Positions 33,236-63,418 are shown, counted from the first letter of the stretch. The stretch is 64,000 nucleotides of DNA from an uncultured Chloroflexia bacterium (GCA_963760735.1 CAVXEB010000004.1:1592329-1656328); one strand, 5' to 3'. Numbers and translations are program-made. Notes: generated by a model from the sequence alone, not told the origin.

Positions 33236-34581
33236 CAAGCCGCGCCGAACTGTTCCACCAGCGCCGGCTGGCCCGCGAGGTAGCCGTCGAGGATCCGCTC
33301 GGCGACGTTGACCGATGGGACCAGGGGATGGAGCGCGAGCGCCTTGATGGCCATGGCTCGTGAGCCGGAGAGTGCCGCCTCGATCGCCGCCCGCTCGGCC
33401 GCGCGAACCGAGAGGATCAGGCCCTGTGCCTGCAGGGGAACACTCCCGATCGCCGCTGGAACGACCCCGCCCGGGCCGATGATGCACGGCACCTCGACGA
33501 TCGCCTCCTCGTCGAGGAACGGCAGGCTCGAGCGATTGGGAACGTCAAGGATCATGACCCGGTAGCCGTCGCCGTGGAGCCCGTCCACGAGGTTCAGGGC
33601 CAGCGTCCCGTAGTCGCCCGGTCCACGCGCCGCCACGATCCCGGCCATCTCGTCCTCCCGGCCGGTCCACGCCTCCTCCATGTAGTGCGACTCGCGCTCG
33701 GCGTGGGTGCGACGCCAGTCGCGCAGCGCCTCGGCCGGTGAGCCGTGACCCGCGTAGAAGGCGGCCTGCTGACGTTCGAGGAAGGCGGAGCGAACCGTCC
33801 CGGCGTTCATCGCCTCGAGCGCCTCGGCGTTGAAGTCGTAGTAGTAGAGGTACTCGTTCGGGATCATCCCCACCGAGCGGAGCCAGTCCGCACCGAACAG
33901 GCGCCCCTCTTCGAAGGTCTCGAGCCGTTCGCGGTCCGCCAACAGGCCCGGCAGGACGTCCCGCCCGCCGTCGAGGACACCACGCAGCCAGCCCAGGTGG
34001 TTGATCCCGAAATAGTCGAACCACAGCTCCTCGGGCGGCCGGTCGAGGGCACCCGCGACCCGCTTGCAGAGGTCCAGCGGGGCGTCGCAGATGCCGATCA
34101 CCCGGTCGCCCAGGACCCGCCGAGCGGCTTCCGTCACCAGGCCCACCGGGTTCGTGAAGTTCACGAAGGTCGCGTTGGGCGCTCGGCGAGCCACCACCTC
34201 GGCGATCGAGGTGACGACCGGGACGGTCCGAAGGGCGAAGGTGATCCCGCCGGGTCCCGTCGTCTCCTGCCCGATCACGCCCTGGGCGATGGCTGCCGTC
34301 TCGTCGAGAATACGGCCCGCCATGCCGCCGGCCCGAACCGCGCAGTAGACGATGTCGGCACCATCCACCGCCTCGTCGAGGTTGGTCGTCATCGTCACCG
34401 GCGCGGTCGCTCCGAGCTCCTCGGAGATGCCGTCGAGGACGCAGCCGATCCGGTCCAGGCGGCCCTGGTCGATGTCGTAGAAGGCGACCTCGTCGTAGCG
34501 GGTCGCGACCTCGCCGGCGGCGAGGGCTCGGTAGATCACCGGCGTCCGGAAGCCGCCGGCACCGATCAGCGTCAACTTCAT
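33235..34581 (-). CDS. Glycoside hydrolase family 4 (NAD+/Mn2+-dependent 6-phospho-glucosidase / alpha-glucosidase-like)
   Basis: MKLTLIGAGGFRTPVIY ... DIVYCAVRAGG ... FVNFTNPVGLVTEA ... IGICDAPLDL fits the GH4 Rossmann and active-site pattern. Confidence 0.85.
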   Translation of the reverse strand: MKLTLIGAGGFRTPVIYRALAAGEVATRYDEVAFYDIDQGRLDRIGCVLDGISEELGATAPVTMTTNLDEAVDGADIVYCAVRAGGMAGRILDETAAIAQGVIGQETTGPGGITFALRTVPVVTSIAEVVARRAPNATFVNFTNPVGLVTEAARRVLGDRVIGICDAPLDLCKRVAGALDRPPEELWFDYFGINHLGWLRGVLDGGRDVLPGLLADRERLETFEEGRLFGADWLRSVGMIPNEYLYYYDFNAEALEAMNAGTVRSAFLERQQAAFYAGHGSPAEALRDWRRTHAERESHYMEEAWTGREDEMAGIVAARGPGDYGTLALNLVDGLHGDGYRVMILDVPNRSSLPFLDEEAIVEVPCIIGPGGVVPAAIGSVPLQAQGLILSVRAAERAAIEAALSGSRAMAIKALALHPLVPSVNVAERILDGYLAGQPALVEQFGAA

Positions 34582-34587
34582 GCCGGC

Positions 34588-34608
34588 GATTGAACCAAAT
34601 TTGAACCG
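34588..34608 (-). promoter_or_regulatory. GGTTCA direct-repeat motif site 2 (CGGTTCAAATTTGGTTCAATC on the minus strand), ending 6 nt before the GH4 ATG
   Basis: Read directly from the sequence. Confidence 0.55.
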
Positions 34609-34637
34609 TAATATCAAGCCGTTCGTACCGGCTCGCG

Positions 34638-35927
34638 CTAGAAGCGGATGTCTGCGTCCCGGAGCAGGTCGGCGATCGTCACGGTCTGGCCGCGCTCCAT
34701 GGACGCGTTGGACGCGATGCCGGTCAGGATCGACCATGCGCCGTCGACGTGGCTGGATCGGCGGAGATACGGGTCGTGGCTCGCCGCCGGGTTCAGCAGC
34801 TGGTCGAGCATGACGGGGTCGCCGCCGCCGTGATCTCCTTCGCCTGACCAGACGTCCACCCGCTGCGGCTCCTCGCCGTGGCGGTGAAGAACCGTTGTCG
34901 TCGCGCTGTCGTCGGCGTGATGCCTCGTCCCGCCGAAGATGCCGTGCACGCCGACGTGCCGGTGCGTCAGCTCGCCAGCGGTGCCGGAGAACACGATCTC
35001 GTATCCCTCCCACGGGCTGTAGGCACACAGGGTGTAGTTCATCGAGACGCCGTTTGCGTAGCCGACCTGGACCTGCATCGTGTCCTCGATGCTGATCTCA
35101 CTCGAGAAGATGCAGCGGTCGCGGACGTAGCCGTCCGCGTCTTCCGTCTCGAGATACAGAGGGCTCAGATCCGGGTCGCCTTCGAGGTCGAGGCGATACG
35201 GGCACGGAACGCTCGCCGGGCAGGTGTGACAGCGCTCACCCCGTCCGCTCAGCCCGAGGGATTCGGCCGTGCTCGGGGTGTAGAAGCGACGAGCGCCCAG
35301 CGCCGAGATCGTCTCGGGGTGGGACCCGACCCACCAGTTGACCAGGTCGAAATGATGGGTCGCCTTGTGGACGAGCAGCCCGCCCGACTGATCCTTCCGG
35401 CGATGCCATCGGCGGAAGTAGTCGGCCCCGTGGACCCGGTCGAGGGACCACCGGAAATCCACGGCGGTGATCTCGCCGATGCCGCCGGACACCAGGATGT
35501 CCTTCAGCTGGGTGTGAGCCGGGTTGTAGCGATAGTTGAAGGTCACCGTGATCGAACGGCCGGTTTCCCGCTGCGCGTCGACGATCCTCTTCAACCTGGC
35601 GAGATCGATCGTCATCGGCTTTTCGGTGATGACGTCACAGCCGGCCCGCAGCGCCCGGACGATGTAGGCGTCGTGCAGGTAGTCCGGCGTAGTCACGATG
35701 ATCGTGTCGGGTCGCTGCTCGGCGATCATCCGATCGAACTCGTCGGCCGGGTAGAGGCCGATGACATCCGCACCCCCACCGGGAACCCGGGAGGCAGCCA
35801 GCGCCAGACGCAGCGGGTTGCTGTCGCACAGTGCGACGAGCTCGTTGCCGGCGTCGATCGGGTGGTCGACCAGCGCCTCGCGATACATGGCGTGCCGCGA
35901 TCCCGTCCCGACGATGGCGTACCTCAC
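34638..35927 (-). CDS. Gfo/Idh/MocA-family oxidoreductase
   Basis: MRYAIVGTGSRHAMY ... DTIIVTTPDYLHDAYIVRALRAGCDVITEKPM. Confidence 0.85.
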   Translation of the reverse strand: MRYAIVGTGSRHAMYREALVDHPIDAGNELVALCDSNPLRLALAASRVPGGGADVIGLYPADEFDRMIAEQRPDTIIVTTPDYLHDAYIVRALRAGCDVITEKPMTIDLARLKRIVDAQRETGRSITVTFNYRYNPAHTQLKDILVSGGIGEITAVDFRWSLDRVHGADYFRRWHRRKDQSGGLLVHKATHHFDLVNWWVGSHPETISALGARRFYTPSTAESLGLSGRGERCHTCPASVPCPYRLDLEGDPDLSPLYLETEDADGYVRDRCIFSSEISIEDTMQVQVGYANGVSMNYTLCAYSPWEGYEIVFSGTAGELTHRHVGVHGIFGGTRHHADDSATTTVLHRHGEEPQRVDVWSGEGDHGGGDPVMLDQLLNPAASHDPYLRRSSHVDGAWSILTGIASNASMERGQTVTIADLLRDADIRF

Positions 35928-36880
35928 GTCCGGGTGCCCGGCCGGAGCTCGCGCTGGAAGAAGGCCATGACCTTCTCGTGCATTTCGGGCGTCTCGCGGT
36001 GATCGACGCCCGCCTGCACGAACACCTCGAGGGCATCCCCTGCTCCCGCCACCTCGTACATCGGTCTGGTCACCGCGAGTGCGCGTTCGATGCTCGGCGG
36101 CGGGGTGAGCTCGTCGTCCTCGCCCAGGCAGATGAGCTGCGGCCGGGGCGCCACCATGCCTGCGATCTCCCCGGTCGAGGTGCGCCGGAGCATCCCCGGC
36201 ACGAGCAGGTAGATCCCGTGGTTGTCGTGGGCGCCGAGGTCGACGAGGGTCGCGTAGTCCGCGTAGCAGCAGAGGTGCGCGACCGCCCGGATCCTCGGAT
36301 CGAGCGCCGCATGCCAGTACGCAAGCGTGGAACCGAGCGAGATCCCGAACGCCCCGATGCGCTGCGGGTCGACATCGTCGCGGGACGAGAGATAGGTCAG
36401 GGCCGCGGCCTGTTCCGACACCATCTGACCGATCAGGGACGTGCCGTACCAGATGTGGGCCTTGGCAGCCGCGCTCTCCTCGACGTCGTCGCGATCGCCG
36501 AACGTCGGCATGTCCATGCAGATCGTGACGTAGCCCGCGCGGGCAAGCAGCGGCCCGAACGGACTCAGCAGGTAGGAACGTCCGTCCATCAGCTCGCTGG
36601 CGCCGATCTCATGGCGTCCACCATGCGAGTGCCCATAGAGGATGGCCGCTTGACGACCGATGGCCCCGGCGGGTCGGGTCAGGAAGGCGCGCACCCTGCC
36701 GACACCCTCGAGGTCGAGCTCCAGGCGCTCGAACGCGTAGCCGTCCCGGTCTGCCGCCTCGGCCGAGATGAGTCCGATCCCGGGCTCACGGAATGACAGG
36801 AGCGACGCGAGCTCGTCGCGAGAGATCGCCAATCCGGCTCCCTTGTGCTGCGCCCATCCCACGGGTCGCGATTGAACCAA
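35924..36880 (-). CDS. Alpha/beta hydrolase (dienelactone hydrolase / acetyl-esterase-like)
   Basis: GHSHGG and GISLGS nucleophile-elbow motifs are present. The ORF-track start is TTG 36880, with an alternative GTG at 36862. Confidence 0.7.
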   Translation of the reverse strand: MVQSRPVGWAQHKGAGLAISRDELASLLSFREPGIGLISAEAADRDGYAFERLELDLEGVGRVRAFLTRPAGAIGRQAAILYGHSHGGRHEIGASELMDGRSYLLSPFGPLLARAGYVTICMDMPTFGDRDDVEESAAAKAHIWYGTSLIGQMVSEQAAALTYLSSRDDVDPQRIGAFGISLGSTLAYWHAALDPRIRAVAHLCCYADYATLVDLGAHDNHGIYLLVPGMLRRTSTGEIAGMVAPRPQLICLGEDDELTPPPSIERALAVTRPMYEVAGAGDALEVFVQAGVDHRETPEMHEKVMAFFQRELRPGTRT

Positions 36881-36891
36881 CGATGAACCAC
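36868..36891 (-). promoter_or_regulatory. GGTTCA direct-repeat motif site 3 (GTGGTTCATCGTTGGTTCAATCGC, minus strand), overlapping the annotated start of the hydrolase gene
   Basis: Read directly from the sequence. Confidence 0.5.
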
Positions 36892-36926
36892 GGACGCAAC
36901 GGCTCGCGGGTCGCCACGTCTGATGT

Positions 36927-38123
36927 GTGATACATTACCAGCATGAGCCCCTCGTCGCCCACATGAGGATCGTCCGCCTGCAGCTCCATCCGGTGCGTGT
37001 CACCCGGGAGACGGGTGTCGCGAACGAGCACGTCATCGTCGAGATCGAGACGGACGGCGGGGTTCCCGGATGGGGCGAGATGAGCGACCTCTCGCACCTC
37101 CCGCTCTACCAGTTCGACCTGACGCAGCTGCAGTCCGCGCTGTCGGAGATCCTCGTCGGAGCGGATCCAAGGGCGCTGAACGACATCGAGCGTCGGATGA
37201 CGGGCTTCTATCCCGACGAAGGCCACATGTACAGCCGTTCCGGGCTGGTGCGCCAGGGCGTCGAGCTGGCGCTCTTCGACTGCCTCGGGCGCGCGGACGG
37301 CGTGCCGGTCCATCGCCTCCTGGGTGGAGCGCTGCGCGATCGGATCCCCGTCTGCTACCCGGTGTTCCGTCTCCGCACGACCGATCAGGCGCCGGCGGCG
37401 CTCGACCGTGTCGACGAGAAGCTTCGCCAGGGATTCGACGTCATCCGGTTCTACGCCGGCAGCGATCCTGCCGCCGACCTGGCGTTCATGATGGGCTTCG
37501 CCGACCGGTTCGCCGGCCGGGTCCGGATCAAGTCGCTCGACTTCTCCAACCTGCTCGGATGGCGCGACGCACTCCAGGCGACCGAGCGGCTGACCGGCGT
37601 CACGGACGTGATGCTGGTCGAGAGCGTCGCGCTCCGCGGCGACATCGAGGGCCTCGCGGAGTTCCGGCGCCGCAGCAGGCATCCGGTCTCCGAGCACGCG
37701 CACGGGCAGCGACACGCCTGGCAGCTCCTGCACCAGGGCGCGGTCGACATCCTGAACCTGTCGCCGTACGTCCTTGGCGGGATCCGCCCGACGATCCGAG
37801 CGGCGGCGATGGCGGACGCCGCCGGAGCCAGCGTCCTGCTCGGCACCACGCAGGAGCTCGGCCTGGGAACCGCGGCGGTCGCCCACGTCGGCGCGGTCTT
37901 GGCGGCCCTTCCATACCCGAGCGACAACGTCGGACCGCGTCTCTACACCGCGGATGTCGCGACACCGCCCGTCGAGTACGTCGATGGCCATCTGGTCGTG
38001 CCGACCGGTCCCGGACTCGGTCCCTCGGTCGATCCGTCCCTGCTCGAGAGCCTTCGGTCGAACGGGGACTGGGGCTTCGGGCTCGACCTGGCCGGCGCCG
38101 TCGATCGCACCTTGCCGTCATGA
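36927..38123 (+). CDS. Enolase-superfamily enzyme (mandelate racemase / muconate lactonizing enzyme family; likely sugar-acid dehydratase)
   Basis: The N-terminal capping domain and barrel are recognisable (VIVEIETDGGVPGWGE ... GFDVIRFYAG ...). Confidence 0.75.
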   Translation: MIHYQHEPLVAHMRIVRLQLHPVRVTRETGVANEHVIVEIETDGGVPGWGEMSDLSHLPLYQFDLTQLQSALSEILVGADPRALNDIERRMTGFYPDEGHMYSRSGLVRQGVELALFDCLGRADGVPVHRLLGGALRDRIPVCYPVFRLRTTDQAPAALDRVDEKLRQGFDVIRFYAGSDPAADLAFMMGFADRFAGRVRIKSLDFSNLLGWRDALQATERLTGVTDVMLVESVALRGDIEGLAEFRRRSRHPVSEHAHGQRHAWQLLHQGAVDILNLSPYVLGGIRPTIRAAAMADAAGASVLLGTTQELGLGTAAVAHVGAVLAALPYPSDNVGPRLYTADVATPPVEYVDGHLVVPTGPGLGPSVDPSLLESLRSNGDWGFGLDLAGAVDRTLPS

Positions 38124-38151
38124 AGCCTGTCTGCACGGGAGGAACGTGGAA

Positions 38152-39060
38152 ATGACCGTCCGAGACGAGCCGATGGTCGCAGTCGAGCCCTTCGAGATCG
38201 CCGACCCGGCGACGACGCTGACGCCGATGCAGGAGTACCTGTTCGACCTGAACGGCTACCTGGTCCTGAGGGGCGCCATCAGCTCCGATGACGTCGCCGC
38301 GATGAACGCCACCTACGACGCGATCGCCGCCGCCAACATCGATGGGATGGGCTGGTTCGGGCGTGTCGCAGTGAACAACGTCGGCCGTCAGGAGGGAATG
38401 ATCTTCGAGCAGCTCTACGAGGCGGGTCCCGTCTGGGAGAAGCTCGTCGACCACCCGGCCTGGTTCCACAAGGTCGCCCACTTCGTCGGGTCCGACGACC
38501 CGGAGAACTTCGACAACCATCACGGCCTGCTGTTCATCGACGAGTGCTTCGGCACGATCCGGCGGAAGGGCGGCGCGCAGCGGATGCATTCGGGCGGCCA
38601 CGTCGGCACCATCCGCACCCAGTACCGGTATCACGCCGGCAAGTTCCACTGCGGCCAGATCGTCATCCTGATGGCGTTGACCGACATCGGACCGGGCGAC
38701 GGCGCGACGATGGTCGTGCCCGGCAGTCACAAGTCGAACATCAAGCATCCGCAGACCGTGCCTCTCGAGATGCGCGGCGAGGACATCTCGATCGACGGCG
38801 TCGCCGGCGCGATCGAGTGCCACCTGAAGAAGGGCGATGCCCTGCTCTTTGTCGACGCGATCGCCCACGGCTCGGCCCGCCGCACGAACCCGGAAGGCGA
38901 GCGCCGCGTGGCGAGCTATCGCTACGGACCGAGCTGGGGCTTCTTCCGCTACCCATACCGGCCGAGCGAGGAGCTGCTCGCCCGTCTGACGCCGGAGCGT
39001 CGTCAGACGATCCAGCCACACGGCGAAGTCGTCGAACCGCCCGCGCCGCCACCGTTCTGA
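38152..39060 (+). CDS. Phytanoyl-CoA dioxygenase (PhyH)-family Fe(II)/2-oxoglutarate oxygenase
   Basis: GGGAGGAACG RBS. The HxD...H facial-triad context is MHSGGHVG ... TMVVPGSHK. Confidence 0.75.
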   Translation: MTVRDEPMVAVEPFEIADPATTLTPMQEYLFDLNGYLVLRGAISSDDVAAMNATYDAIAAANIDGMGWFGRVAVNNVGRQEGMIFEQLYEAGPVWEKLVDHPAWFHKVAHFVGSDDPENFDNHHGLLFIDECFGTIRRKGGAQRMHSGGHVGTIRTQYRYHAGKFHCGQIVILMALTDIGPGDGATMVVPGSHKSNIKHPQTVPLEMRGEDISIDGVAGAIECHLKKGDALLFVDAIAHGSARRTNPEGERRVASYRYGPSWGFFRYPYRPSEELLARLTPERRQTIQPHGEVVEPPAPPPF

Positions 39061-39095
39061 CGAGACGGGCGCCGTGGCGTCCGGGGTCGCGCCGA

Positions 39096-39890
39096 TCAGC
39101 CCGTCGCGTCGATGCTCTTGCCGCCGTCGATGGCGACGGTGGCGCCCGTGATCATCACGGCAACGTCCGAGCAGAGGAAGCGGATCAGCGCGGCGACCTC
39201 TCCGGGCTCGATCAGACGGCCCCACGCCGCCGCCAGCGGCGCCATCGCCAGGTAGGAGGCGAGGGCGGCCGCCGGGTCGGGGGCCTCAGTCAGGTTGCGA
39301 TCCATGATCCCGGTGTCGCCGACCGGACCCGGACAGACGGCATTGACCCGGATGCGGTCTGCAGCATGGGCCCGCGCCAGCGAACGGGTCAGCATCAGGA
39401 GACCCGCCTTGGACGTCGAGTAGGCCGGTTCGTCCGCTCGTGCGACGAGCCCGGCGTTGGAGGCGACGTTGACGATCACGCCGCCGCCCGTCGCACGCAG
39501 CCGCGGAATGGCCTGACGGGCGACCAGGAACGGGCCCTTGAGGTTCGTGTCGAGACAGGTGTCCCAGTCGATCTCCGAGAGGTCCTCGACGCGCCCGACC
39601 ATGTCGATGCCCGCGTTGTTGACGAGGATGTCGAGCCGGCCGCCGTTGTCGATCTCGACGAAGGCCTCCTCGACGGATCGGGCATCCGCGACATCCATCC
39701 GGACGACCCGGAGGTCGAGGCCCTGGGCGGAGGCCTCGGCGGCGACGTGCCGCCCCCGATCGAGGTCCCGGGAGGCGACGTAGACCGCCGCGCCGTCCGC
39801 CGCGAGCACCCGGGCGGTCGCCAGCCCGATGCCCGTTGCCCCTCCGGTGACGATCGCGACGCGGCCGGCGAGCTCCCGGTCCATGGTCAT
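39096..39890 (-). CDS. Short-chain dehydrogenase/reductase (SDR)
   Basis: TGGATGIG glycine motif and the NNAG ... YSTSKAG catalytic pattern. Confidence 0.85.
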   Translation of the reverse strand: MTMDRELAGRVAIVTGGATGIGLATARVLAADGAAVYVASRDLDRGRHVAAEASAQGLDLRVVRMDVADARSVEEAFVEIDNGGRLDILVNNAGIDMVGRVEDLSEIDWDTCLDTNLKGPFLVARQAIPRLRATGGGVIVNVASNAGLVARADEPAYSTSKAGLLMLTRSLARAHAADRIRVNAVCPGPVGDTGIMDRNLTEAPDPAAALASYLAMAPLAAAWGRLIEPGEVAALIRFLCSDVAVMITGATVAIDGGKSIDATG

Positions 39891-40771
39891 GACGCCACCG
39901 CCGGCCAGGATCGACGGTGCGCCGGCCAGACGAAGCCGGCGCCGGTCCCGGGGACCCAGACCGACGCGGACGGATGGTGCTTGCGCATCGCTCGGACGAA
40001 GGCGTCGGGTCGTCCGACGTTGCCCCGGATCGTGTCGAAGTGCATCGGGATCGCGAGGGCCACGCCGACATCGCGGGCGAGCCGCGCCGCCTCATCCGGT
40101 GACAGGTTGCCGACGATGCCGCGCCGTTCCCGCTCCGGATCGCGACCATTGATCGGGAGCAGGGCGATGTCCGGACGGAGCTCGGCCACGGCCCGGACCA
40201 GGATCTCGTCCGCCAGCGTGTCGCCAGCGTGGTAGAGGCGAACGCCGTCGAGCTCGACGACGTAGCCGACGAACCTTGGTGTTCCCTGCTCCTGATCGCC
40301 CAGGGAATATCCGTCCTCGATCGAGACGGCATGCCGAGCCGGCACCGCCGTCGCCCGAACGTGCCCGACATCGATCGGGCTGTCGATCCGGGCGCCGGAC
40401 ACCCGATCGGCCGGGATCCCCGCGCCGGTCACGAGGGGCACGAGCGGCGCCGGCACGACGAACCGGGCGGCCGGCGAGACGTCCGCGATGATCGTCCAGA
40501 TCGGCAGGTCGAGGTGGTCGCCGTGCTCGTGCGTCGCGAGGACAGCGGTGACGCCGACGAGGCCGCGCGGATCGACCATCGGCTCGACCAGCCTCTCGGG
40601 TCGTCTCGAGAGGAACGGGTCGATCAGGACGAGGTCGTCGCCGCTCCGGAGGGCGAAGCCCGCCTGGCCGAGCGCGACCAGCCCGACCGAGTCCCGCGGC
40701 GGACGCCATGCGGCCAGGTGCGAGGCGAACGCGACGGCCGACGTCACGCCCGCGCCGCCGTCGGATGCCAT
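39887..40771 (-). CDS. MBL-fold metallo-hydrolase (possible lactonase)
   Basis: ATHEHGDHLD is the HxHxDH metal motif. The start is set at ATG 40771 (MASDGG...). The upstream 150 codons of the ORF are R/P/S-rich and lack a motif. Confidence 0.65.
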   Translation of the reverse strand: MASDGGAGVTSAVAFASHLAAWRPPRDSVGLVALGQAGFALRSGDDLVLIDPFLSRRPERLVEPMVDPRGLVGVTAVLATHEHGDHLDLPIWTIIADVSPAARFVVPAPLVPLVTGAGIPADRVSGARIDSPIDVGHVRATAVPARHAVSIEDGYSLGDQEQGTPRFVGYVVELDGVRLYHAGDTLADEILVRAVAELRPDIALLPINGRDPERERRGIVGNLSPDEAARLARDVGVALAIPMHFDTIRGNVGRPDAFVRAMRKHHPSASVWVPGTGAGFVWPAHRRSWPAVAS

Positions 40772-40793
40772 CCGCCGGACCGGAACCCTCCGA

Positions 40794-41522
40794 TCACGAC
40801 GAGGCGATCGGGGGGGCCGCCGTCCGGCCGCCGGTCTCCTCGACGTGGCGACGGGTGTCGGCCAGGGCCTGCCGGAGGTGGGCCGCCATCGCGTCGCGTG
40901 CCGCACCGCCGTCCCGGGCGGAGATCGCGTCGACGACCCGCTGATGCTCACCGCGTCGGTGCGGCTGGCCCCGATACAGCCGCGGAAACACCGCGCGCGC
41001 AATGAGGACGTGCGTCCGGAGTCCCGCGTAGAGAGTGTCGAGTCGCTGGTTGTGAGCGGCCTGAACGATGGCGGCGTGCAGCTCGGCGTCGGTGGCAATC
41101 TCCTGGAGATACGTCTCCAGGTCGATGGCGCGGCCCGCTCGGCCGGCCGGTCCGGACTCGAGGCGCTCCGCGAGCTCCTGCACCCGCGCGAGCTCGTCGG
41201 GCGTCGCCCGGCCGGCGGCAAGTTCTGCAGCCTCGGGCTCGATCATCAGGCGGATCTCGTAGAGCTCCTCGATGTCCCGGATCGAGACCGGCGAGACGAC
41301 GGTCCCGCGACGTGGCGTCACCGTGACCAGGCCCTCGGCGGCCATCTGGTTCACGGCGTCCCGAACCGGGGTGATGCTGACGCCGAGCGCGGCCGCGATG
41401 TCCGGCGGGGAGATCCGCTCGCCGGGCTCGAGCTCGCGACGAAGGATCCGGCCGAGGAGCTGATCGTGGATCTGCTGCTGGAGCGATCGCAGCTCGAGGC
41501 CGCCGTCCGTGGGTGCGCCCAT
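40794..41522 (-). CDS. GntR-family regulator (FadR/FCD subfamily)
   Basis: N-terminal wHTH (ISPPDIAAALGVSITPVRDAVNQMAAEGLV) plus a helical C-terminal domain. Confidence 0.8.
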   Translation of the reverse strand: MGAPTDGGLELRSLQQQIHDQLLGRILRRELEPGERISPPDIAAALGVSITPVRDAVNQMAAEGLVTVTPRRGTVVSPVSIRDIEELYEIRLMIEPEAAELAAGRATPDELARVQELAERLESGPAGRAGRAIDLETYLQEIATDAELHAAIVQAAHNQRLDTLYAGLRTHVLIARAVFPRLYRGQPHRRGEHQRVVDAISARDGGAARDAMAAHLRQALADTRRHVEETGGRTAAPPIASS

Positions 41523-41569
41523 CGCCGGGAGTGTAGACGGCTGATGTACCAGACTTCTGGCATGCCGTC

Positions 41570-41590
41570 AGTGAACCAAAGGTGAACCGA
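41570..41590 (-). promoter_or_regulatory. GGTTCA direct-repeat motif site 4 (CGGTTCACCTTTGGTTCACTG, minus strand), about 50 nt upstream of the GntR start
   Basis: Read directly from the sequence. Confidence 0.55.
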
Positions 41591-41647
41591 ACGAGCAAGG
41601 ACCGTCGCGAGAGGTCGAGGAACTCCGTCGATCCCGCCCGGCCCGCC

Positions 41648-42442
41648 CTAGATGGCGACGCGCGGCGTCCCGACCCCTGCCGCGAGGGTCGTGGCGAAGC
41701 CGTAGCGGTCGCCACGGTTCAGCAAGCGAGCCGTCTCGAACGGCTCGTCGTACTGGTCGAACGTCATCTCGTCGAGCTCGAGCAGGGGATCGCCCGCGCG
41801 GACGGTCAGGAGCGACGCCTGGCGCTCGGTCGCCGGCACCGCGCGGACCACGACCTCTGCCCGGCTGGGGATGACCCCACCACGCTCGCGGACGGTGCCG
41901 TAGAGCGACCGATTGGCGAAGTCCACGCCCTTCAGCGCCGGAATGAGGCGCGGATGCAGGACCGAGCGGTCCAGCGAGATCGGGACGCCCTCGATGAACC
42001 GCACCCGCTCCAGCTCGAACACCTTCGACGACGCGACGATCCGCAGGTCCGACGCCTCGCCGGTCGTGGCGGTCCGCGATCGAGCGGCCAGGACGTTCGA
42101 GGTCACGACATAACCGTGCCGGGCCGCCCACTCGGTGAAGCTCGGGGGGCCTTCGATCCGCTCGGTCACCGCGGGCCCGACGACGACCCAGCCGCCCCGA
42201 CCCCGGGCCTGGATCAGGCCCTTGTCGGCCAGCGCGGAGAGGGCTCGCCGGAGCGTGTTCCGGGCAACCCCGAGCCGGGCCCCGAGCTCGCGCTCGGGGG
42301 CCAGGCGACTCCCCGGCAGAAGTCGTCCGGTGAGGATGTCGGCCTCGATCCGTCGGAGCACCTGGACGGACGGCAGGTCATCGCCGTGGACGTCGTGTCG
42401 CCCGGTCCCGAGGGGCTCGTCGGCGGCCTGAGGCAGGGTCAT
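41648..42442 (-). CDS. GntR-family regulator (HutC subfamily with UTRA effector domain)
   Basis: wHTH (LAPERELGARLGVARNTLRRALSALADKGLI) plus a UTRA-like C-terminal domain. Confidence 0.8.
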   Translation of the reverse strand: MTLPQAADEPLGTGRHDVHGDDLPSVQVLRRIEADILTGRLLPGSRLAPERELGARLGVARNTLRRALSALADKGLIQARGRGGWVVVGPAVTERIEGPPSFTEWAARHGYVVTSNVLAARSRTATTGEASDLRIVASSKVFELERVRFIEGVPISLDRSVLHPRLIPALKGVDFANRSLYGTVRERGGVIPSRAEVVVRAVPATERQASLLTVRAGDPLLELDEMTFDQYDEPFETARLLNRGDRYGFATTLAAGVGTPRVAI

Positions 42443-48956: not shown

Positions 48957-49876
48957 GCCGGATGCCAGCCGATCTCGGCGTGCAGGACCAGGGCCTCCTC
49001 GATGAGCTCGTCGGCGATCCGCCGGTGATGGGCGTCGAACGGCACCGCGGGCCGGCGGAGGCCCGCGCCGGCAAAGACGCCCTGGCGAACCGCCAGAAGC
49101 TTCAGGAACTGGTTGGAGATGTCGATGTGCTGATTCTGCCAACCGAGGATCGGCAGCAGCCGCGCGAACAAGGCTCTTGCCGACGGGCGGTCGCCCGCGC
49201 GATAGCGGCGAACCACGACGTCGATCACCCAGTGGAGCCCGCCCGGCGTCACGACGTGGATCCCCCGATCGAGGGCCTCGATCAGGTACGGAACCGCCCA
49301 GCCCGCGGCGACGTTGAGGCGACCTCCGGTCGCCTCGATGATCGCCGTGTACTTGGCGCCGGCCGGCACCGTCTCGACCTTGATGCAGCGGAACGGCTCG
49401 AGCTCGTCGAAGAGCCGCGCGATCGTGGCGATCGGCAGCCCGGGCCCGCCCCACTCCAGGTCCTGGATCATCAGGACGTCGATCGGCGCCTCGCAGACCG
49501 AACGAAAGAAGTCGATCGTCGCCGCCTCGTCGTGGAGCAGCGCCACCGGAGCCTGGACGAGGACGCCGGCCGCCCCGTGGGTTCGCGCGAACTCGGCGAT
49601 GGATCGGGCGGTTCGGGGATCGTCCGCGCTCGCCCCGATGAAGACCGGCACGTGTCCCGCCGCCTGCTCCAGGACCGCGCGAGTCAACGTCCGACGCTCG
49701 GCCGGCGTCAGCCGGGAGACCTCGCTCGCGACGACCGGATAGAGCAGGCCGGCCACGCCTGCCGCGAGCCGATCGGCGACCCCGCGCTCGAAACTGTCAA
49801 GATCGATCCGATCGGCTTCGTCGAACGGGGTCTGGGGGATCGCGACGACCCCCGACAGCGGGTAGAGCTCCTTCAT
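48953..49876 (-). CDS. DapA/NAL-family class I aldolase (second copy)
   Basis: GVVAIPQTPFDEADRIDLDSFERGVADRL family pattern; overlaps the ADH start by 4 nt. Confidence 0.8.
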   Translation of the reverse strand: MKELYPLSGVVAIPQTPFDEADRIDLDSFERGVADRLAAGVAGLLYPVVASEVSRLTPAERRTLTRAVLEQAAGHVPVFIGASADDPRTARSIAEFARTHGAAGVLVQAPVALLHDEAATIDFFRSVCEAPIDVLMIQDLEWGGPGLPIATIARLFDELEPFRCIKVETVPAGAKYTAIIEATGGRLNVAAGWAVPYLIEALDRGIHVVTPGGLHWVIDVVVRRYRAGDRPSARALFARLLPILGWQNQHIDISNQFLKLLAVRQGVFAGAGLRRPAVPFDAHHRRIADELIEEALVLHAEIGWHPA

Positions 49877-49946
49877 GTGCCGACCATCATGGCATATCAT
49901 ACGATGAATTGCGTCTCCATCCGGCCGGTGTGAGGAGGGCTGCGGC

Positions 49947-51677
49947 GTGGCACCTGACGATCGACGAGCGCTGCGAAGCCAGTCGTGGTGGGAGGGCGGC
50001 GCCCTCGACCTGATCGGTCACCGCTCGCAATTCCGGATGCAGGGATTCCCGGAGGAATCGTTCACCGGCCGCCCCGTGATCGGAATCCTCAACAGCTGGA
50101 GCGAGGTCGCCGGCTGCAACGCCCACCTCCGCGACCTCGCGGAGCACGTCAAGCGCGGGGTCCTGCGCGCGGGTGGGTTTCCCGTCGAGGTCCCGGTGAT
50201 CTCGCTGGGCGAGCCGATCATCAAGCCGACGGCGATGCTCTACCGGAACCTGATGGCCATGGCCGTCGAGGAGCTGATCCGCGGCAACCCGCTCGACGGC
50301 GTCGTCCTTCTGGCAGGCTGCGACAAGACGATTCCGGCGAGCCTCATGGGAGCGGCCAGCGTCGACGTGCCGGCGATGATGGTGACCGGCGGCCCGATGC
50401 TCAGCGGTCGGTTCCGGAACGAGCACGTCGGCGCCTGTACGGATTGCTGGCGGCTGCACGACGAGCTCCGGGCCGATCGGATCAGCCAGGCCGACTGGGA
50501 CGAGTTCGAGGCCGGCATGTGCCGGAGCGACGGGCACTGCTCGCCAATGGGGACCGCGTCGACGATGGCCTGCCTGACCGAGGCCCTCGGCATGGCGCCC
50601 AGCGGCAGCGCCGCGATCCCGGCCGTGGATTCGCGTCGCCGTCACGTCGCGGAACGGGCCGGGTCCCAGATCATCGACCTCGTCGCCGCGGGCACCCGCC
50701 CCTCGGACATCATGACCCGGGCTGCGTTCGAGAACGCGATCCGGACCTTGCACGCCATCGGTGGCTCGACCAACGCCGTCATCCACCTCGTGGCGATCGC
50801 GGGACGTCTCGGGGTCGATCTTCCGATCGACCTGTTCGACGAGCTCGCCGCCTCGACACCCCTGCTCGTGAACATCAAGCCATCCGGTGCCTATCTCATG
50901 GAGGACTTCTTCTACGCGGGAGGCCTGCCCGCGGTCCACGCCGAGATGACGGACCTGCTCCACCTCGACGCCCGGACGGTCACCGGTCGAACGATCGGCG
51001 AGGCGATCCTCGGCGCGTCGATCGTCAACGACGACGTGATCCGGCCGCGCGACCGCGCGCTCCTGTCGGGCGGCAGTCTCGCGATCCTCCGGGGCAGCCT
51101 CTGTCCCGACGGGGCGGTGCTCAAGGTCTCCGCGGCCAGCAGCCGGCTGCTCCAGCACGAGGGACGCGCCGTCGTCTTCCACGACGTCAACGAGCTCCAC
51201 GCGACGATCGACGATCCGGCGCTCCAGATCGAGCCCGACGACGTCCTCGTCCTCCAGAACGGCGGGCCGGTCGGCGCGCCCGGCATGCCCGAGTTCGGCC
51301 ACCTCCCGATGCCGTCCTACCTGCTGCGGCAGGGCGTCACCGACATGGTCCGGATCAGCGACGCGCGGATGAGCGGCACGGGCTTCGGCACCGTGGTCCT
51401 CCATGTCGCTCCGGAGTCGGCGATCGGCGGGCCGCTCGCGCTCGTCGAGACCGGCGACCGCATCCGCCTCGACACAGCGGGCCGGCGGCTCGACCTGCTC
51501 GTCGGGGACGAGGCGCTCGCGGCACGCCGGCAAGCGTGGACGCCCCGTCCGACGAGTGACACGAGGGGCTATCGAGGGCTGTATGTGCGGACGGTCATGC
51601 AGGCCGACCGCGGCTGCGACCTGGACTTCCTCGTCGGGCAGTCACCGCCGGTCCGGGCCGGGATCACGCACGGATGA
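49947..51677 (+). CDS. IlvD/EDD-family dehydratase (sugar-acid dehydratase such as arabinonate/xylonate/gluconate dehydratase)
   Basis: Fe-S cluster Cys context (CDKTIPA ... CPGMCxx-like SDGHCSPMGTASTM) and the SDARMSG C-terminal motif. Confidence 0.85.
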   Translation: MAPDDRRALRSQSWWEGGALDLIGHRSQFRMQGFPEESFTGRPVIGILNSWSEVAGCNAHLRDLAEHVKRGVLRAGGFPVEVPVISLGEPIIKPTAMLYRNLMAMAVEELIRGNPLDGVVLLAGCDKTIPASLMGAASVDVPAMMVTGGPMLSGRFRNEHVGACTDCWRLHDELRADRISQADWDEFEAGMCRSDGHCSPMGTASTMACLTEALGMAPSGSAAIPAVDSRRRHVAERAGSQIIDLVAAGTRPSDIMTRAAFENAIRTLHAIGGSTNAVIHLVAIAGRLGVDLPIDLFDELAASTPLLVNIKPSGAYLMEDFFYAGGLPAVHAEMTDLLHLDARTVTGRTIGEAILGASIVNDDVIRPRDRALLSGGSLAILRGSLCPDGAVLKVSAASSRLLQHEGRAVVFHDVNELHATIDDPALQIEPDDVLVLQNGGPVGAPGMPEFGHLPMPSYLLRQGVTDMVRISDARMSGTGFGTVVLHVAPESAIGGPLALVETGDRIRLDTAGRRLDLLVGDEALAARRQAWTPRPTSDTRGYRGLYVRTVMQADRGCDLDFLVGQSPPVRAGITHG

Positions 51678-52434
51678 CGGCCCTGGACGGCGTGTTCGCG
51701 GGCCCGGGCGGGATGTCGAGGCTGACCATCGACTGGGTCACCAGCCGCTCCATCGCCGCCCCGGCGCGATCCGCGTCGCCTTCGACGACGGCGTCGAGCA
51801 CCTCACGATGAGGGCCGATGCTGTAGTCGAGGAAGTCCGGCCAGTCCCAGCCATGGCGGGTGGCGATCTGGAGGCCCGCCTGGAGCGCCGGGCCGAACGC
51901 CGCCACCAGCTGGACCAGATGGTCATTGTGCGTCGCGGCCACCAGCATCGCGTGATACCGGACGTCGGCGTCGAGGTACGTCACCTCGTCATGGGCGGTG
52001 GCCATCGCCTCGAGCGCCGCCCGGATCGCGGCGTGCTCGTCGGGGTTGGCCCGTCCGGCGGCGAGCCGGGCCGCGGCGGGTTCGATGATCCTGCGGACCT
52101 CGAACATGCTGCGCAGGAACTCCGGGTCGAGGCCGGCTTCGGTCAGCCAGGCGAGCACGTCGGGGTCCAGGAGGCGCCACTCCGACCGTGGCAGGATCAC
52201 CGTTCCGCGCTTGGACCGCGATTCGACCATGCCCTTGGCGGCGAGCACCTTCGTCGCTTCCCGGACCACGGTCCGGCTGACGCCGAGCATCCGGCTCAGC
52301 TCACCCTGCTCGGGGAGGATCTCGCCCGTGGCCAGCTCGCCTCGGACGATTCGTCGGCCGATGCCGTCGACCACGCCGGCATGGATGCCGGCCGGTTGCC
52401 GTGAGATCACGATCGCTGCGGTCCGTTGATACAT
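51664..52434 (-). CDS. GntR-family regulator (FadR/FCD subfamily)
   Basis: wHTH (LPEQGELSRMLGVSRTVVREATKVLAAKGMV) plus an FCD-like C-terminal domain. The start is set at ATG 52434 (MYQRTAAIV). Confidence 0.8.
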   Translation of the reverse strand: MYQRTAAIVISRQPAGIHAGVVDGIGRRIVRGELATGEILPEQGELSRMLGVSRTVVREATKVLAAKGMVESRSKRGTVILPRSEWRLLDPDVLAWLTEAGLDPEFLRSMFEVRRIIEPAAARLAAGRANPDEHAAIRAALEAMATAHDEVTYLDADVRYHAMLVAATHNDHLVQLVAAFGPALQAGLQIATRHGWDWPDFLDYSIGPHREVLDAVVEGDADRAGAAMERLVTQSMVSLDIPPGPANTPSRAVIRA

Positions 52435-52446
52435 ACTATTGTATGA
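52431..52446. promoter_or_regulatory. Imperfect palindrome CATACTATTGTATG in an AT-rich divergent promoter; candidate GntR operator
   Basis: 5-bp arms CATAC/GTATG around TATT, overlapping the GntR start codon region. Confidence 0.25.
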
Positions 52447-52527
52447 TAGCGTCAGAGACGCCGGAACGCCATCTGCCTCCCGACGGCATCGGGCACGGCG
52501 AGGGCGTCGGCAGGGCGGCCGAAGCAT

Positions 52528-52575
52528 TGGTTCAGATTTGGTCGTTGACTCGAACGGTTCAACTTTGGTTCAATC
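52528..52575 (+). promoter_or_regulatory. GGTTCA direct-repeat motif site 5, extended (GGTTCAGATTT GGTCGTTGAC ... CGGTTCAACTTTGGTTCAATC; core 52555-52575)
   Basis: It lies upstream of the ABC permease operon. Confidence 0.55.
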
Positions 52576-54591: not shown

Positions 54592-54663
54592 AGGAGGAAG
54601 GCCCTGAACATCACGACCTACCCATTCGGCGGTGCCAGTCACCAGAGGTGGAGGAGAACTTCG

Positions 54664-56016: not shown

Positions 56017-56189
56017 CCCTTGAGCGTCGATCGTCGTCCATGACGTCCTAGGCCGGCGGAACCGGCCGCCATGAGCCATCCAGGCTCTCGGCCCGTCCTC
56101 CTCCATTCGAGCCGCCGTCCCGGTCCCCCGGACCGGGCGGCGGCTCGTCCGCGTGGACCGCGTGCGTCGCGCCGCGTGCCGCAGGCCCG

Positions 56190-58814: not shown

Positions 58815-58816
58815 CG

Positions 58817-60163: not shown

Positions 60164-60188
60164 ACAGGGACGATCGCCGCGGCGGTCC

Positions 60189-60992: not shown

Positions 60993-61861
60993 GGCGTGCC
61001 CTCCTCGGCGTCCTCGGAGATGTCGTCATCGAGAGAGCGGCCGGTCCAGGCCATGAACACGTCCCAGAGCGTCGCCTCACGGCCGAGCCGGCTCGATGCC
61101 GATGCGACCAGACCCTCGGGCGTGTCGCTCGCGACCACGCGCCCGCCGTCGATGATCGTGATCGCGTCGGACAGGCGCTCGGCCTCGGCGAGGTCGTGCG
61201 TGGTCAGCACGATCGTCGTGTCGTGGGTGGCACGGAGCTCCTCGACGAACTGCTGGACGTCGAGCTTCGAGCGCGGATCGAGCCCGGTCGTGGGCTCGTC
61301 CAGGAGGAGGAGGGTCGGACTCGTGAGGAGCGCTCTGGCGATCGCGACCTTCTGCTGCATGCCCCGGCTCATCTGCTCGATCGGCCGATCCACCCGATCA
61401 CTGCCGACGTGGAGGCGCTCGAGGATGGCGTAGACGGTCCGCCTGGCCGTCGGCATGTCGAGGCCGTAGGTCCGCGCGGCGAAGGTGAGGTTCTCCATCG
61501 GGCTGAGCTTCTTGAAGAAGGCCGCATCGACGCTGACCCGGTTGATCAGGCGCTTGACCCGCAGCTCGTCGCGCTCGATGTCGAGCCCGAACACCTCGAC
61601 CCGGCCCGCATCCAGGGTCAGGAGGCCCGCGATCAGCCGGATCAGGGTCGACTTGCCGGACCCGTTGGCGCCGAGGACGCCGTGGATGTCCCCGCGCTCG
61701 AGACGCAGGGACACGTCCGTGACGGCGTCGACGGGCGCCTGATGGCGACCGGTGACGAAGGTCTTGAAGACGTGGTCGACGAGCAGCGCGGGAGGCTGGG
61801 GCGCCCCCGGCGCGATGGGCGGCTGTGACGAGAGTGGGCGTGCGATCGGGTTCAGGGTCAT
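60989..61861 (-). CDS. ABC transporter ATP-binding protein
   Basis: Walker A GANGSGKST, signature MSRGMQQKV and Walker B LLLLDEP. Confidence 0.85.
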   Translation of the reverse strand: MTLNPIARPLSSQPPIAPGAPQPPALLVDHVFKTFVTGRHQAPVDAVTDVSLRLERGDIHGVLGANGSGKSTLIRLIAGLLTLDAGRVEVFGLDIERDELRVKRLINRVSVDAAFFKKLSPMENLTFAARTYGLDMPTARRTVYAILERLHVGSDRVDRPIEQMSRGMQQKVAIARALLTSPTLLLLDEPTTGLDPRSKLDVQQFVEELRATHDTTIVLTTHDLAEAERLSDAITIIDGGRVVASDTPEGLVASASSRLGREATLWDVFMAWTGRSLDDDISEDAEEGTP

Positions 61862-62208
61862 GGTGGTCTCGGGGCGTGCAGGGCGACAACCGGAGGCGGC
61901 GCGCGGACCGATCGTCCCGGATCCAGCGGCTCACAACAGAGAAGCCGCGGGTCTGGCCCACGGCTCCCGGGTTTCCATGTGGCGGCGACGCCGCCGCGCT
62001 ACCCCCGAACGACCGACGCTCGGGTGCGGATCTCAACGCTCTCGTGGGCCTGCGCGCATCGAACTGCGGTCTCCATCCGATGGCCTCACGTAGCGGAATC
62101 CATCCGACGGTCCATCTTTGGTTCAGACGGACGCCGAAGGCCGATTGTAGGGATGGTCCCGGTCCGCGTCAAAGTGAGCGGCAGGCAGACCCCTTTCACT
62201 TGACTAGT

Positions 62209-62230
62209 CTGGTTCACTTTTGGTTCAATG
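62209..62230 (+). promoter_or_regulatory. GGTTCA direct-repeat motif site 6 (CTGGTTCACTTTTGGTTCAATG), overlapping the annotated ATG of the P450. A half-site (TTTGGTTCAGA) lies at 62117-62127.
   Basis: Read directly from the sequence. Confidence 0.55.
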
Positions 62231-63418
62231 CGTCCGGTGAAGTCGTCTTCGGCGGTGGTGTGGAACCCGCTCGTCCCGCTGGACGATCCGTACCCGATCT
62301 ACCGCCGGCTACGGGACGAGGCGCCGCTCCATTACGACGACCAGTCCGACCTCTGGGTCCTGACGCGGTTCGACGACGTCCAGGCGGCCGGGAAGGACTG
62401 GGAGACCTTCTCGAGCAGCGTCGGCGGCCGGGGCAACGACGTCGACGACACCTACCAGCTCTTCCTGCCGGCCGGCGATCTCGCCGGGGTGGATCCTCCG
62501 GTTCACACCCGCCTTCGGGGCGCCCTCCGCCTCGCGTTCAGCCCGTCGGCGCTCCGCACCCGCTTCGAGCCGATCGTCCGCCGGAAGGCGATCCAGCTGA
62601 TCGAGGTCTTCATGGATGCCGGGCAGGCGGACTTCGCCCGCGACCTTGCGCGGCCGCTTCCCGGCACGACGATGTTCTCCTGGTTCGGCTTCCCGGAGAC
62701 GGACCATCCACAGCTGCTCGACTGGTTCGGCGACATGCTCGAGCGGGACCCCGGCGAGCGCGCGCTGCCGGATCGCGCGATTGCCGGCCGTGACCGGATG
62801 CGGGCGTACATGCAGGAAGCAGCGGCCGGCCGGCGGAGATCTCCGCGCGAGGACCTGATGACGTTTCTCGTCGAAGCCGAGGACTCCGGCCAGATCAGCG
62901 CCGACGAGCTCACCGGTGGCGCGATGCTGCTGTTCGTCGCGGGGATCACCACGACATCCGGGCTCATCTCCAACTCCCTGCTCCATCTCGATCGGTATCC
63001 GGACCAACGGGACCGCATCCGCGACGATCCGTCGGTCGTCCCCGCGGCCGTCGAGGAGCTGCTCCGGTACGACGCCCCGATCCAGGCCCTCGCGCGGACC
63101 GCGACGAGGGACGTCGAGATCCACGGCCGGGTGATCCCGCGAGACGCACGAGTCGCGCTAGTGTGGGCGTCCGCGAACCGCGACGAGCGGCGCTGGGCGG
63201 ATCCGGACCGACTCGACATCGACCGCGAGCTGCAACGACACATCACGTTCGGCGACGGGATCCACCACTGCCTCGGTGCTCCGCTGGCCCGCATGGAGGC
63301 GCGGATCGTCTTCGAGGAGCTCTTCCAGCGGATTCCCGAGTACGCCGTGTGCGGTCCGATCGTCCGGATCAAGACGCCGACGGACCGGGCGCTCGAGTCG
63401 CTGCCCGTCGAGTTCTGA
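62228..63418 (+). CDS. Cytochrome P450
   Basis: EELLRYDAP (ExxR), the PERF-like ERRWADPDRLD and heme-binding FGDGIHHCLGAPLA. The true start may be GTG 62240 or 62261 downstream of the motif. Confidence 0.85.
   Translation: MRPVKSSSAVVWNPLVPLDDPYPIYRRLRDEAPLHYDDQSDLWVLTRFDDVQAAGKDWETFSSSVGGRGNDVDDTYQLFLPAGDLAGVDPPVHTRLRGALRLAFSPSALRTRFEPIVRRKAIQLIEVFMDAGQADFARDLARPLPGTTMFSWFGFPETDHPQLLDWFGDMLERDPGERALPDRAIAGRDRMRAYMQEAAAGRRRSPREDLMTFLVEAEDSGQISADELTGGAMLLFVAGITTTSGLISNSLLHLDRYPDQRDRIRDDPSVVPAAVEELLRYDAPIQALARTATRDVEIHGRVIPRDARVALVWASANRDERRWADPDRLDIDRELQRHITFGDGIHHCLGAPLARMEARIVFEELFQRIPEYAVCGPIVRIKTPTDRALESLPVEF

Follow-up and report, generated by a model that had tools for sequence, protein, structure and literature searches.

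A direct repeat touching start codons in a carbohydrate locus of an uncultured Chloroflexota bacterium is predicted to be an operator within leaderless promoters

Results and discussion

A conserved direct repeat at start codons

We analysed a 64-kb stretch of DNA from an uncultured Chloroflexia bacterium (GCA_963760735.1, CAVXEB010000004.1:1592329-1656328). This whole stretch is hereafter called the window, and all coordinates are counted from its first letter; genes were called by codon statistics and annotated with Pfam, 50 of the 61 called genes being scanned. The window contains several copies of a direct repeat of period 11 bp, which reads GGTTCA-N5-GGTTCA in gene sense (TGAACC-N5-TGAACC on the other strand). 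In our judgement this motif is probably an operator lying in the core promoters of leaderless genes and bound by a neighbouring GntR-family repressor of the HutC type. An operator inside the promoter of a leaderless gene would account in one simple model for an observation made in an earlier note on this DNA, namely that the motif abuts or overlaps start codons. That association is real and far beyond chance, but three of the four details given with it needed correction, as described below for the genes concerned.

Seven sites occur in the 64 kb, five exact and two with one mismatch, and all seven are directed toward the adjacent gene. When up to two mismatches are allowed, nine matches are observed against a mean of 2.2 in dinucleotide-preserving shuffles, and none of 100 shuffles reached nine. 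For comparison we pooled the window with 24 genome loci, high-GC metagenome contigs and four contigs carrying distant HutC homologues, obtaining 70 unique sites from about 45 related loci (labelled L001 and so on); they represent about six gene families, many of them orthologous. Over the unique sites, information content is high across yGGTTCAnnTTTGGTTCAATc and close to zero directly beyond, and the AT 3' of GGTTCA is conserved at 83-90% even though it was absent from the search pattern. The repeat proper has the consensus yGGTTCAnnTTTGGTTCA, that is, head-to-tail heptamers with a TGGT core and not a GT-N-AC palindrome; its only inverted symmetry is TTGnnnCAA.

At 60 of the 70 unique sites, a TTG in the position of a -35 element (TTGACn or TTGCnn) precedes the distal repeat by 2-6 nucleotides, and a spacer of 17-18 nucleotides separates this -35 from a hexamer in the position of a -10 element. 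In the main class of sites the -10 is TTCAAT, preceded by TG (TG-g-TTCAAT) and followed after 6-8 nucleotides by the start codon. Where only two nucleotides separate the -35 from the repeats, the -10 takes the form CAnnnT (CACGCT, CAGTCT or CACTGT, the second base being A and the sixth T) and the start codon follows after 6-7 nucleotides. Because other bases replace the AT exactly in this class, with its shifted -10, the AT found just after the proximal repeat at main-class sites would be a feature of the promoter and not part of the repeat.

An ATG or GTG is found at an offset of 7-12 nucleotides from the proximal repeat in 46 of the 60 promoter-type sites, compared with 14% when random positions in this DNA are scored (binomial p about 2e-27, shared ancestry ignored). 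The 10 sites that lack a -35-like hexamer never have such a start. Counted from the first T of the -35, the start codon lies at 35-37 nucleotides in 42 of these 46 sites, while the repeats slide by 2-3 nucleotides: a gap of two nucleotides between -35 and repeats goes with a start at offset 10-11 (PfkB in L005, L007, L008, L010, L016 and L035; GH4 in L146-L149), a gap of 4-5 nucleotides mostly with a start at offset 8-9 (Spearman rho -0.49 between gap and offset). The 5-9 nucleotides before the start codon are variable at the pooled sites and contain no Shine-Dalgarno (SD) sequence (no GGAG). We also considered TTGAC as a third repeat unit and rejected it, since it does not resemble GGTTCA in sequence and stands 2, 4 or 5 nucleotides from the repeats but at a constant distance from the start. 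The layout, from -35 through hexamer to start codon, would correspond to a sigma-70-type promoter whose predicted transcription start site (TSS) is the start codon itself. The motif would touch start codons because the genes are leaderless and the operator lies inside the core promoter.

The GH4 promoter

The GH4 glycosidase gene (33235-34581, minus strand), predicted to be leaderless, is preceded by site B, an exact match with repeats GGTTCAAATTTGGTTCA (34591-34607, minus strand) that is conserved in 19 of 19 motif-bearing GH4 loci. A putative -35, TTGATA (34612-34617, minus strand), lies 17 nucleotides upstream of the putative -10, TTCAAT (34589-34594, minus strand), which overlaps the proximal repeat and has the upstream TG of an extended -10; GH4 orthologues have TTGCCC or TTGACC at the position equivalent to TTGATA. 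Seven nucleotides (CGCCGGC) separate TTCAAT from the ATG (34581-34579), which stands 9 nucleotides after GGTTCA, or 6 after GGTTCAATC. The earlier note had remarked that the motif ends 6 nucleotides before this ATG and leaves no room for a ribosome-binding site, and the orthologues bear this out. In all 19 related motif-carrying loci the same ATG is found at offset 8-10 and the upstream string reads cTTG(c/a)CC - 4/5 nt - GGTTCA nn TTT GGTTCA ATC - 5-7 nt - ATG; across these 19 loci the 5-7 nucleotides between GGTTCAATC and ATG keep their length, vary in sequence and never contain an SD. We take ATG 34581 to be the true start, with none downstream, because the match to the Pfam GH4 domain reaches back to residue 2 and related loci conserve the N-terminus MKLTLIGAGG. 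Four GH4 homologues without the motif (L017, L019, L020 and L024) have TAGTCT, CATACT, TAGGCT or TATCCT, then 6-7 nucleotides and a GTG, which is the classical leaderless geometry (PMC3160421); the motif-less actinobacterial GH4 locus L023 has GGAGG instead.

Close relatives of the GH4 protein (83-97% identity) all come from metagenome-assembled genomes (MAGs) of the Chloroflexota, class Candidatus Limnocylindria. Judged from these relatives, the host is an uncultured soil member of the Limnocylindria, and an actinobacterial origin is ruled out. The earlier note had supported leaderless or short-leader transcripts by their frequency in Actinobacteria, a premise that does not apply to this host. 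The reading itself is strengthened by the comparative data (conserved -35, constant distance of 35-37 nucleotides, no SD), with the correction that the GH4 start is not to be sought downstream. A leaderless mRNA is thus supported by comparison for GH4, and is probable for the P450 gene discussed below.

We propose that the operator would consist of two, sometimes four, direct repeats of the TGGTTCA type, one helical turn apart, within the core of a sigma-A-type promoter. Transcription is predicted to start 6-8 nucleotides past the -10, on the A or G of the start codon, for GH4, P450 and several genes of related genomes, and the resulting leaderless mRNAs would need no SD. A repressor on the repeats would cover about -26 to -9, plus the -35 where a second pair is present, and so shut the promoter. 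The most likely repressor is the HutC protein encoded at 41648-42442, which would be released by a sugar-derived effector at its UTRA domain. The steric repressor put forward earlier is thereby kept in spirit. However, since the repeats lie over the promoter spacer and the -10, the bound factor would exclude RNA polymerase instead of blocking the start of translation, and a roadblock at that point seems unneeded to explain the geometry. The leaderless and steric readings, offered as alternatives, are both needed and do not compete. A third suggestion, an element acting at the RNA level, is unsupported: an Rfam scan of the whole window at gathering scores returned only a tRNA and no match at the motif, and folding of five motif regions gave z-scores of -0.6 to +1.95, no better than shuffles. 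If the transcript is leaderless, moreover, transcription from the motif's own promoter would begin past the motif and leave it out of the RNA.

Other genes of the predicted regulon

The repeats before the P450 gene form site G (GGTTCACTTTTGGTTCA, 62211-62227, plus strand), with -35 TTGACT (62200-62205) and -10 TTCAAT (62224-62229). As noted earlier, ATG 62228 lies inside the TTCAATG of the motif, but the alternative GTG codons are at 62237 and 62255/62258 and not at 62240 and 62261, positions that were 3 nucleotides off. We read the gene from GTG 62237 (offset 9; 62237-63418, plus strand), a start position conserved in orthologues: L002, L003 and L015 have a GTG at offset 8, and in L002 the ATG is out of frame with it. 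ATG 62228 would lie upstream of the predicted TSS. An auxiliary repeat pair, site F (GGTCCATCTTTGGTTCA, 62109-62125, plus strand), has neither a -35 nor a start nearby.

Three genes appear to use the same promoter-operator module with a leader, namely an oxidoreductase gene (start 29779), an alpha/beta hydrolase gene (36832) and an ABC sugar transporter (52697), the first two with canonical SDs. Since leadered members of the regulon have good SDs, this lineage uses SDs where an untranslated region exists.

Site A (GGTTCGGTTTTGGTTCA, 29728-29744, plus strand; -35 TTGCGT at 29718-29723, -10 TTCAAT at 29741-29746) drives the GFO/IDH/MocA oxidoreductase gene (ATG 29779) with a predicted leader of about 25 nucleotides containing the SD GGGAAGGGG. 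The 35 nucleotides previously counted between motif and start are in fact 34 (from GGTTCA, ending at 29744, to the ATG), and the SD lies between them. Before the hydrolase gene, site C matches the repeats with GGTTCATCGTTGGTTCA (36873-36889, minus strand), its -35 being TTGCGT (36894-36899) and its -10 TTCAAT (36871-36876). Two in-frame starts, TTG 36880 and GTG 36862, had been described as the only ones; both are in frame, but a TTG at 36832 led by the SD AAGGGAG (36844-36838; whole element 36830-36844, minus strand) had been missed. This TTG is in frame and aligned with the orthologues' conserved start (V/L)(A/P)ISR, and orthologues L001, L006 and L015 have an SD at the same distance (AAGGGGAG, AGGAGG or GAGGG). 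At offset 10, GTG 36862 is in frame with the gene only in the window and in L001, and the residues it would add are not conserved; it could serve as a second, leaderless start or be present by coincidence. From these alignments the hydrolase more likely has a short leader, of about 30 nucleotides to the start at 36832.

The ABC sugar transporter is preceded by a double operator, site E (52529-52574, plus strand). O2 (GGTTCAGATTTGGTCGT, 52529-52545) abuts the -35 TTGACT (52545-52550), with which it shares one base, and O1 (GGTTCAACTTTGGTTCA, 52556-52572) overlaps the -10 TTCAAT (52569-52574); the predicted leader before the start at 52697 is about 115 nucleotides. The same double layout is found in at least six related loci (L003, L009, L015, L032, L104 and L114).

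Site D (GGTTCACCTTTGGTTCA, 41572-41588, minus strand; -35 TTGCTC at 41593-41598, -10 TTCACT) lies directly 3' of the HutC stop codon. An ATG at 41563 stands at offset 8, out of frame with the next gene; we rejected it as an alternative start of the FCD-type regulator encoded there, the frame not being conserved between loci. Site D is probably the ancestral GH4 promoter stranded at a rearrangement junction. In the window and its closest relative L001, a seven-gene insertion (34638-41522) separates the HutC gene from GH4, and the two are adjacent in about 15 other genomes (comparison L002-L016). The inserted genes encode an FCD regulator, an MBL-fold protein, an SDR, a PhyH protein, an enolase-superfamily protein, the alpha/beta hydrolase and an oxidoreductase. 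GGTTCA promoters are present at both junctions (sites D and B), site D being degenerate in L001.

The candidate regulator

Which protein would bind the repeats? Our candidate is a GntR-family protein of the HutC subfamily, 264 residues long (41648-42442, minus strand), with a winged helix-turn-helix (wHTH) domain (PF00392, E 3.8e-18, residues 26-87) and a C-terminal UTRA domain of the chorismate-lyase fold (PF07702, E 2.5e-33, residues 110-247). Its closest solved structures are DasR and NagR/YvoA, matched over the full length at about 6e-23, and PhnF is also a full-length match. No NCBIfam equivalog reached its cutoff for the HutC protein, nor was one matched in a search with ten regulon proteins, so that no substrate or effector is assignable from this source; only the PHP-domain protein scored above a curated cutoff (CehA/McbA family metallohydrolase).

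The HutC gene adjoins the motif in about 30 loci, and about 16 genomes share, as a conserved core, the order PfkB(-) HutC(+) GH4(+) PHP(+). Elsewhere a more distant HutC homologue (56-65% identity) and a GH4 paralogue are encoded divergently, the motif lying within the 20-40 nucleotides that separate them (L018, L021, L022, L066, L136, L143 and L146-L149). The Limnocylindria GH4 loci that lack the motif (L017, L019 and L020) also lack the HutC gene, in three cases of three. From protein family and operator position we predict the sign of regulation and the kind of effector. Among possible binders we rank the HutC protein first, with about two thirds of our confidence, the FCD-type protein second and a regulator not seen here third.

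In many genomes the distal repeat, read on the opposite strand, contains the start codon of the HutC gene itself (cATGAACC), as in L005 (9110-9126), L007 (9123-9139), L035 (254-270), L148 (2975-2991) and L149 (5971-5987). In L147 and L148 the hexamers of the two divergent promoters, TAGACT for HutC and CAGTCT for GH4, are set back to back and overlap. Such arrangements suggest that the HutC gene and GH4 may share an operator, with autoregulation of the former.

Alternative explanations

Several observations weigh against our interpretation, and some of them favour particular alternatives. The same operator and promoter could be served by another protein, either the FCD-type GntR regulator at 40794-41522 or a regulator encoded outside the window. 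The FCD gene follows site D in the window and adjoins motif-type promoters in four short metagenome contigs (L027, L100, L118 and L145), L015 has six motif sites and no HutC gene within 21 kb, and the FadR-subfamily protein NanR is a known direct-repeat binder (PMC4494728). The intergenic region between PfkB and the HutC gene in the window, for its part, has a degenerate site only. However, the FCD gene is absent from about 20 loci that combine GH4, motif and HutC gene, and it has a strongly conserved palindrome of its own, CTG(G/A)TGCATCAG, of the kind expected for a FadR-type autoregulatory site. This palindrome is followed by TACACT-7nt-ATG in six of six loci examined, and looks like part of a leaderless autoregulated promoter apart from the GGTTCA regulon. 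We therefore consider another binder unlikely, though not negligibly so. In the window the palindrome reads CTGGTACATCAG (41520-41556, minus strand) and in L145 CTGATGCATCAG.

Other objections concern the promoter itself. Many of the 46 sites with a start codon at the expected offset are orthologous and belong to about six gene families, so that our statistics overstate their independence. TTCAAT has T at position 2, where sigma-70 promoters have a nearly invariant A, whereas the window's tRNA gene is preceded by a perfect TATAAT; a consensus promoter scanner that requires A at this position found no promoter between 29500 and 42700. Leaderless genes of bacteria are by accepted practice recognised in silico from a TANNNT about 12 nucleotides before the start codon (PMC3160421), and in our loci only 14 TANNNT were found 0-20 nucleotides from candidate starts, 7 of them at 6-7 nucleotides, too few for a genome-wide statement. 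The same 2011 survey reported leaderless genes in only 4 of 12 Chloroflexi genomes, where they averaged 4.7% of genes (PMC3160421). In the window and most genomes, finally, GH4 begins 50-60 nucleotides 3' of a co-directional gene, in most genomes that for HutC, which makes read-through transcripts possible. Transcription could then start upstream, with the repeats in a 5' untranslated or intercistronic region, the factor acting as a roadblock or on RNA, and the starts being used without an SD. This we find quite improbable, because it leaves unexplained the TTGAC hexamer 17-18 nucleotides upstream of the -10, the constant distance from -35 to start despite sliding repeats, and the same module between divergent GH4 and HutC genes only about 20-40 nucleotides apart; nor was any Rfam family found at the motif, or any RNA structure in the five motif regions folded. 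Least probable by far, in our view, is that the repeats bind an activator replacing the -35 (PhoB/PhoP or SARP type) or belong to a promoter for an extracytoplasmic function (ECF) sigma factor on the opposite strand (TGAACC ... GTCAAC). The 11-bp period of the direct repeats does recall Pho boxes, and TGAACC is similar to an ECF -35; the window has four ECF sigma genes, between 3.6 and 21 kb. An activator in that position, though, would place the TSS about 20 nucleotides inside the GH4 coding sequence, whose essential N-terminal GxGG leaves no later start, and the Pfam scan, which covered 50 of the 61 called genes, revealed neither a response-regulator nor a SARP gene. We rejected Pho-box, OmpR and SARP sites on geometry: such a site would put the -10 about 8-12 nucleotides beyond the last repeat, where the start codon already follows at 8-11 nucleotides, the N-terminus of GH4 allows no shift, and the repeats have a distinct -35 upstream of them. 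The opposite-strand ECF promoter was also rejected, as at most sites it would point at the 3' end of a convergent or upstream gene, with nothing downstream to transcribe, and the spacing from TGAACC to GTCAA would vary over 13-17 nucleotides, which an ECF promoter does not tolerate.

Relation to known systems

The sites of NagQ reportedly have an 11-bp period. The half-site TGGTCT of the dre element bound by DasR and NagR resembles TGGTTC, and the repeats of NanR overlap the nanA promoter. DasR of Streptomyces and NagR/YvoA of Bacillus, the closest solved relatives of our candidate, are HutC-subfamily repressors of sugar genes released by effectors. They bind a 16-bp palindrome, whereas the half-sites described here lie head-to-tail at 11 bp, so that the two wHTH domains, or two dimers, would have to be arranged differently. 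Palindromes are the targets of most HutC proteins, but direct-repeat binders are nevertheless on record: NagQ (TGGTATT) and FarR (TGTATTAWTT) in the HutC subfamily, and NanR (TGGTATAW) in the FadR subfamily (PMC4494728). NagQ, which regulates N-acetylglucosamine genes of Proteobacteria through a predicted operator of TGGTATT repeats, shares with our system the HutC subfamily, direct heptamers with a TGGT core and sugar genes adjacent to the regulator (PMC4494728). The likeness is one of description: here the unit is TGGTTCA, the phylum Chloroflexota and the regulon GH4, PfkB, an ABC transporter, rhamnosidase and P450. E. coli NanR (FadR subfamily) and FarR/MngR (HutC) bind direct repeats too, but with different repeat sequences and proteins (PMC4494728).

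Leaderless mRNAs of Actinobacteria and Deinococcus-Thermus, as outlined in PMC3160421 and PMC4633059, share with our genes a -10 located 6-8 nucleotides before ATG or GTG, the absence of an SD and, as predicted here, a start at the 5' end. They differ in that their -10 is TANNNT, where our main class has TTCAAT with an upstream TG, and in that our geometry is read from sequence alone. The class Limnocylindria was not covered by the 2011 survey of leaderless genes (PMC3160421). Direct-repeat operators of GntR/HutC regulators, occlusion of the core promoter and leaderless mRNAs are all of known kinds, and what would be new is their occurrence in a class of Chloroflexota not studied before. The predictions delineate a testable regulon for abundant uncultured soil Chloroflexota, comprising GH4, PfkB, an ABC sugar transporter, rhamnosidase, oxidoreductases and P450, with a named candidate regulator. 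They also add computational evidence for leaderless initiation, and for coupled leaderless upstream open reading frames (uORFs), beyond the Actinobacteria and Deinococcus groups, and would allow start codons in these MAGs to be placed from promoter geometry.

Short upstream open reading frames

The start codon at offset 8-11 is kept even where it is out of frame with the gene, and there it opens a uORF ending in NTGA on the main start. Before PfkB these uORFs have 14 codons in L008 (ending in ATGA), 47 in L010 (GTGA) and 31 in L016 (GTGA); in L005 and L007 this codon is in frame and lengthens PfkB at its N-terminus. At the P450 gene of L003, a GTG opens 22 codons that end in GTGA on the P450 start. 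Such arrangements suggest termination-reinitiation from leaderless uORFs, although the number of cases is too small for a genome-wide statement. In polycistronic mRNAs of mycobacteria, as PMC4633059 and bioRxiv 10.1101/834739 describe them, a 5'-terminal start likewise opens a short non-conserved open reading frame before the main gene. Those described here differ in ending exactly on the main start (ATGA/GTGA) and in occurring at several unrelated genes, with lengths that vary between orthologues.

As a tentative idea, which we hold with low confidence, the module of about 36 bp (-35, tandem operator, -10 and 5'-terminal start codon) could be a self-sufficient, portable cassette in Limnocylindria: an out-of-frame codon would be kept as a leaderless uORF whose sequence and length are arbitrary and which ends in ATGA/GTGA on the real start, and from this uORF ribosomes would be delivered to the gene by termination-reinitiation. 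If so, any open reading frame placed behind the module would join the regulon with no need of a ribosome-binding site. The presence of the module at both ends of the seven-gene insertion hints that the regulon may have been rearranged by recombination between copies.

Similar arrangements are seen at other promoters. The enolase-superfamily gene (36932-36966, plus strand) has TACATT, a uORF starting at ATG 36943 and its main ATG at 36963; the DHDPS-family gene (49873-49901, minus strand) has TATGAT, a uORF at ATG 49890 and its main ATG at 49876. Both uORFs start at leaderless distance from the -10 and end in ATGA/GTGA on the main start. The arrangement also occurs at L002 2294, L013 1354, L003 14051 and, in L008, L010 and L016, near 9080/955, and orthologous promoters keep it with uORFs of 5, 36 and 57 codons.

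Gene content and other elements of the window

The Pfam annotation identifies the region between 29 and 63 kb as a locus for carbohydrate utilisation. Besides GH4 it encodes GFO/IDH/MocA oxidoreductases, the alpha/beta hydrolase and an enolase-superfamily enzyme, glycosidases of families GH2, GH78 and GH125, the ABC sugar transporter, a PfkB kinase and P450. Three GntR-family regulators are encoded there, the HutC type at 41648-42442 and FCD types at 40794-41522 and 51664-52434. The second FCD gene is associated with TCATCGTATGA / TATCATACAAT boxes, located at 49897-49907 (minus strand) and at its own start (52430-52470, minus strand), which are probably the operator of this regulator. The box at 49897-49907 lies between divergent genes for a DHDPS-family protein and an IlvD/EDD dehydratase, and the ATG of the second FCD gene (52434) stands 8 nucleotides after TATCAT.

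A metagenome scan with the pattern GGTTCANNNTTGGTTCAAT added little: among the matches listed, most were unrelated low-GC repeats, and about 13 of 18 high-GC contigs carried a promoter-type site. The low-GC repeat families in these matches also contain GGTTCA-N5-GGTTCA (contigs L026, L036, L037, L046, L051, L058, L074, L077 and L110, as well as L042, L053, L056, L057, L060 and others). One of them is a conserved human-gut element, ...GTTGGTTCAAAATA...GTTGGTTCAGTGTTGGTTCAAT, and another carries GATTGGTTCAATATTGGTTCAATATTGnACCAATATG.

Upstream of the carbohydrate locus, a tRNA gene (21265-21336) has its perfect TATAAT 8 nucleotides upstream. The four ECF-type sigma factor genes lie within 17 kb of each other, three on the plus strand (3601-4194, 9848-10426 and 15187-15741) and one on the minus strand (20371-20934), and each adjoins unannotated or beta-propeller (Kelch, PD40) genes.

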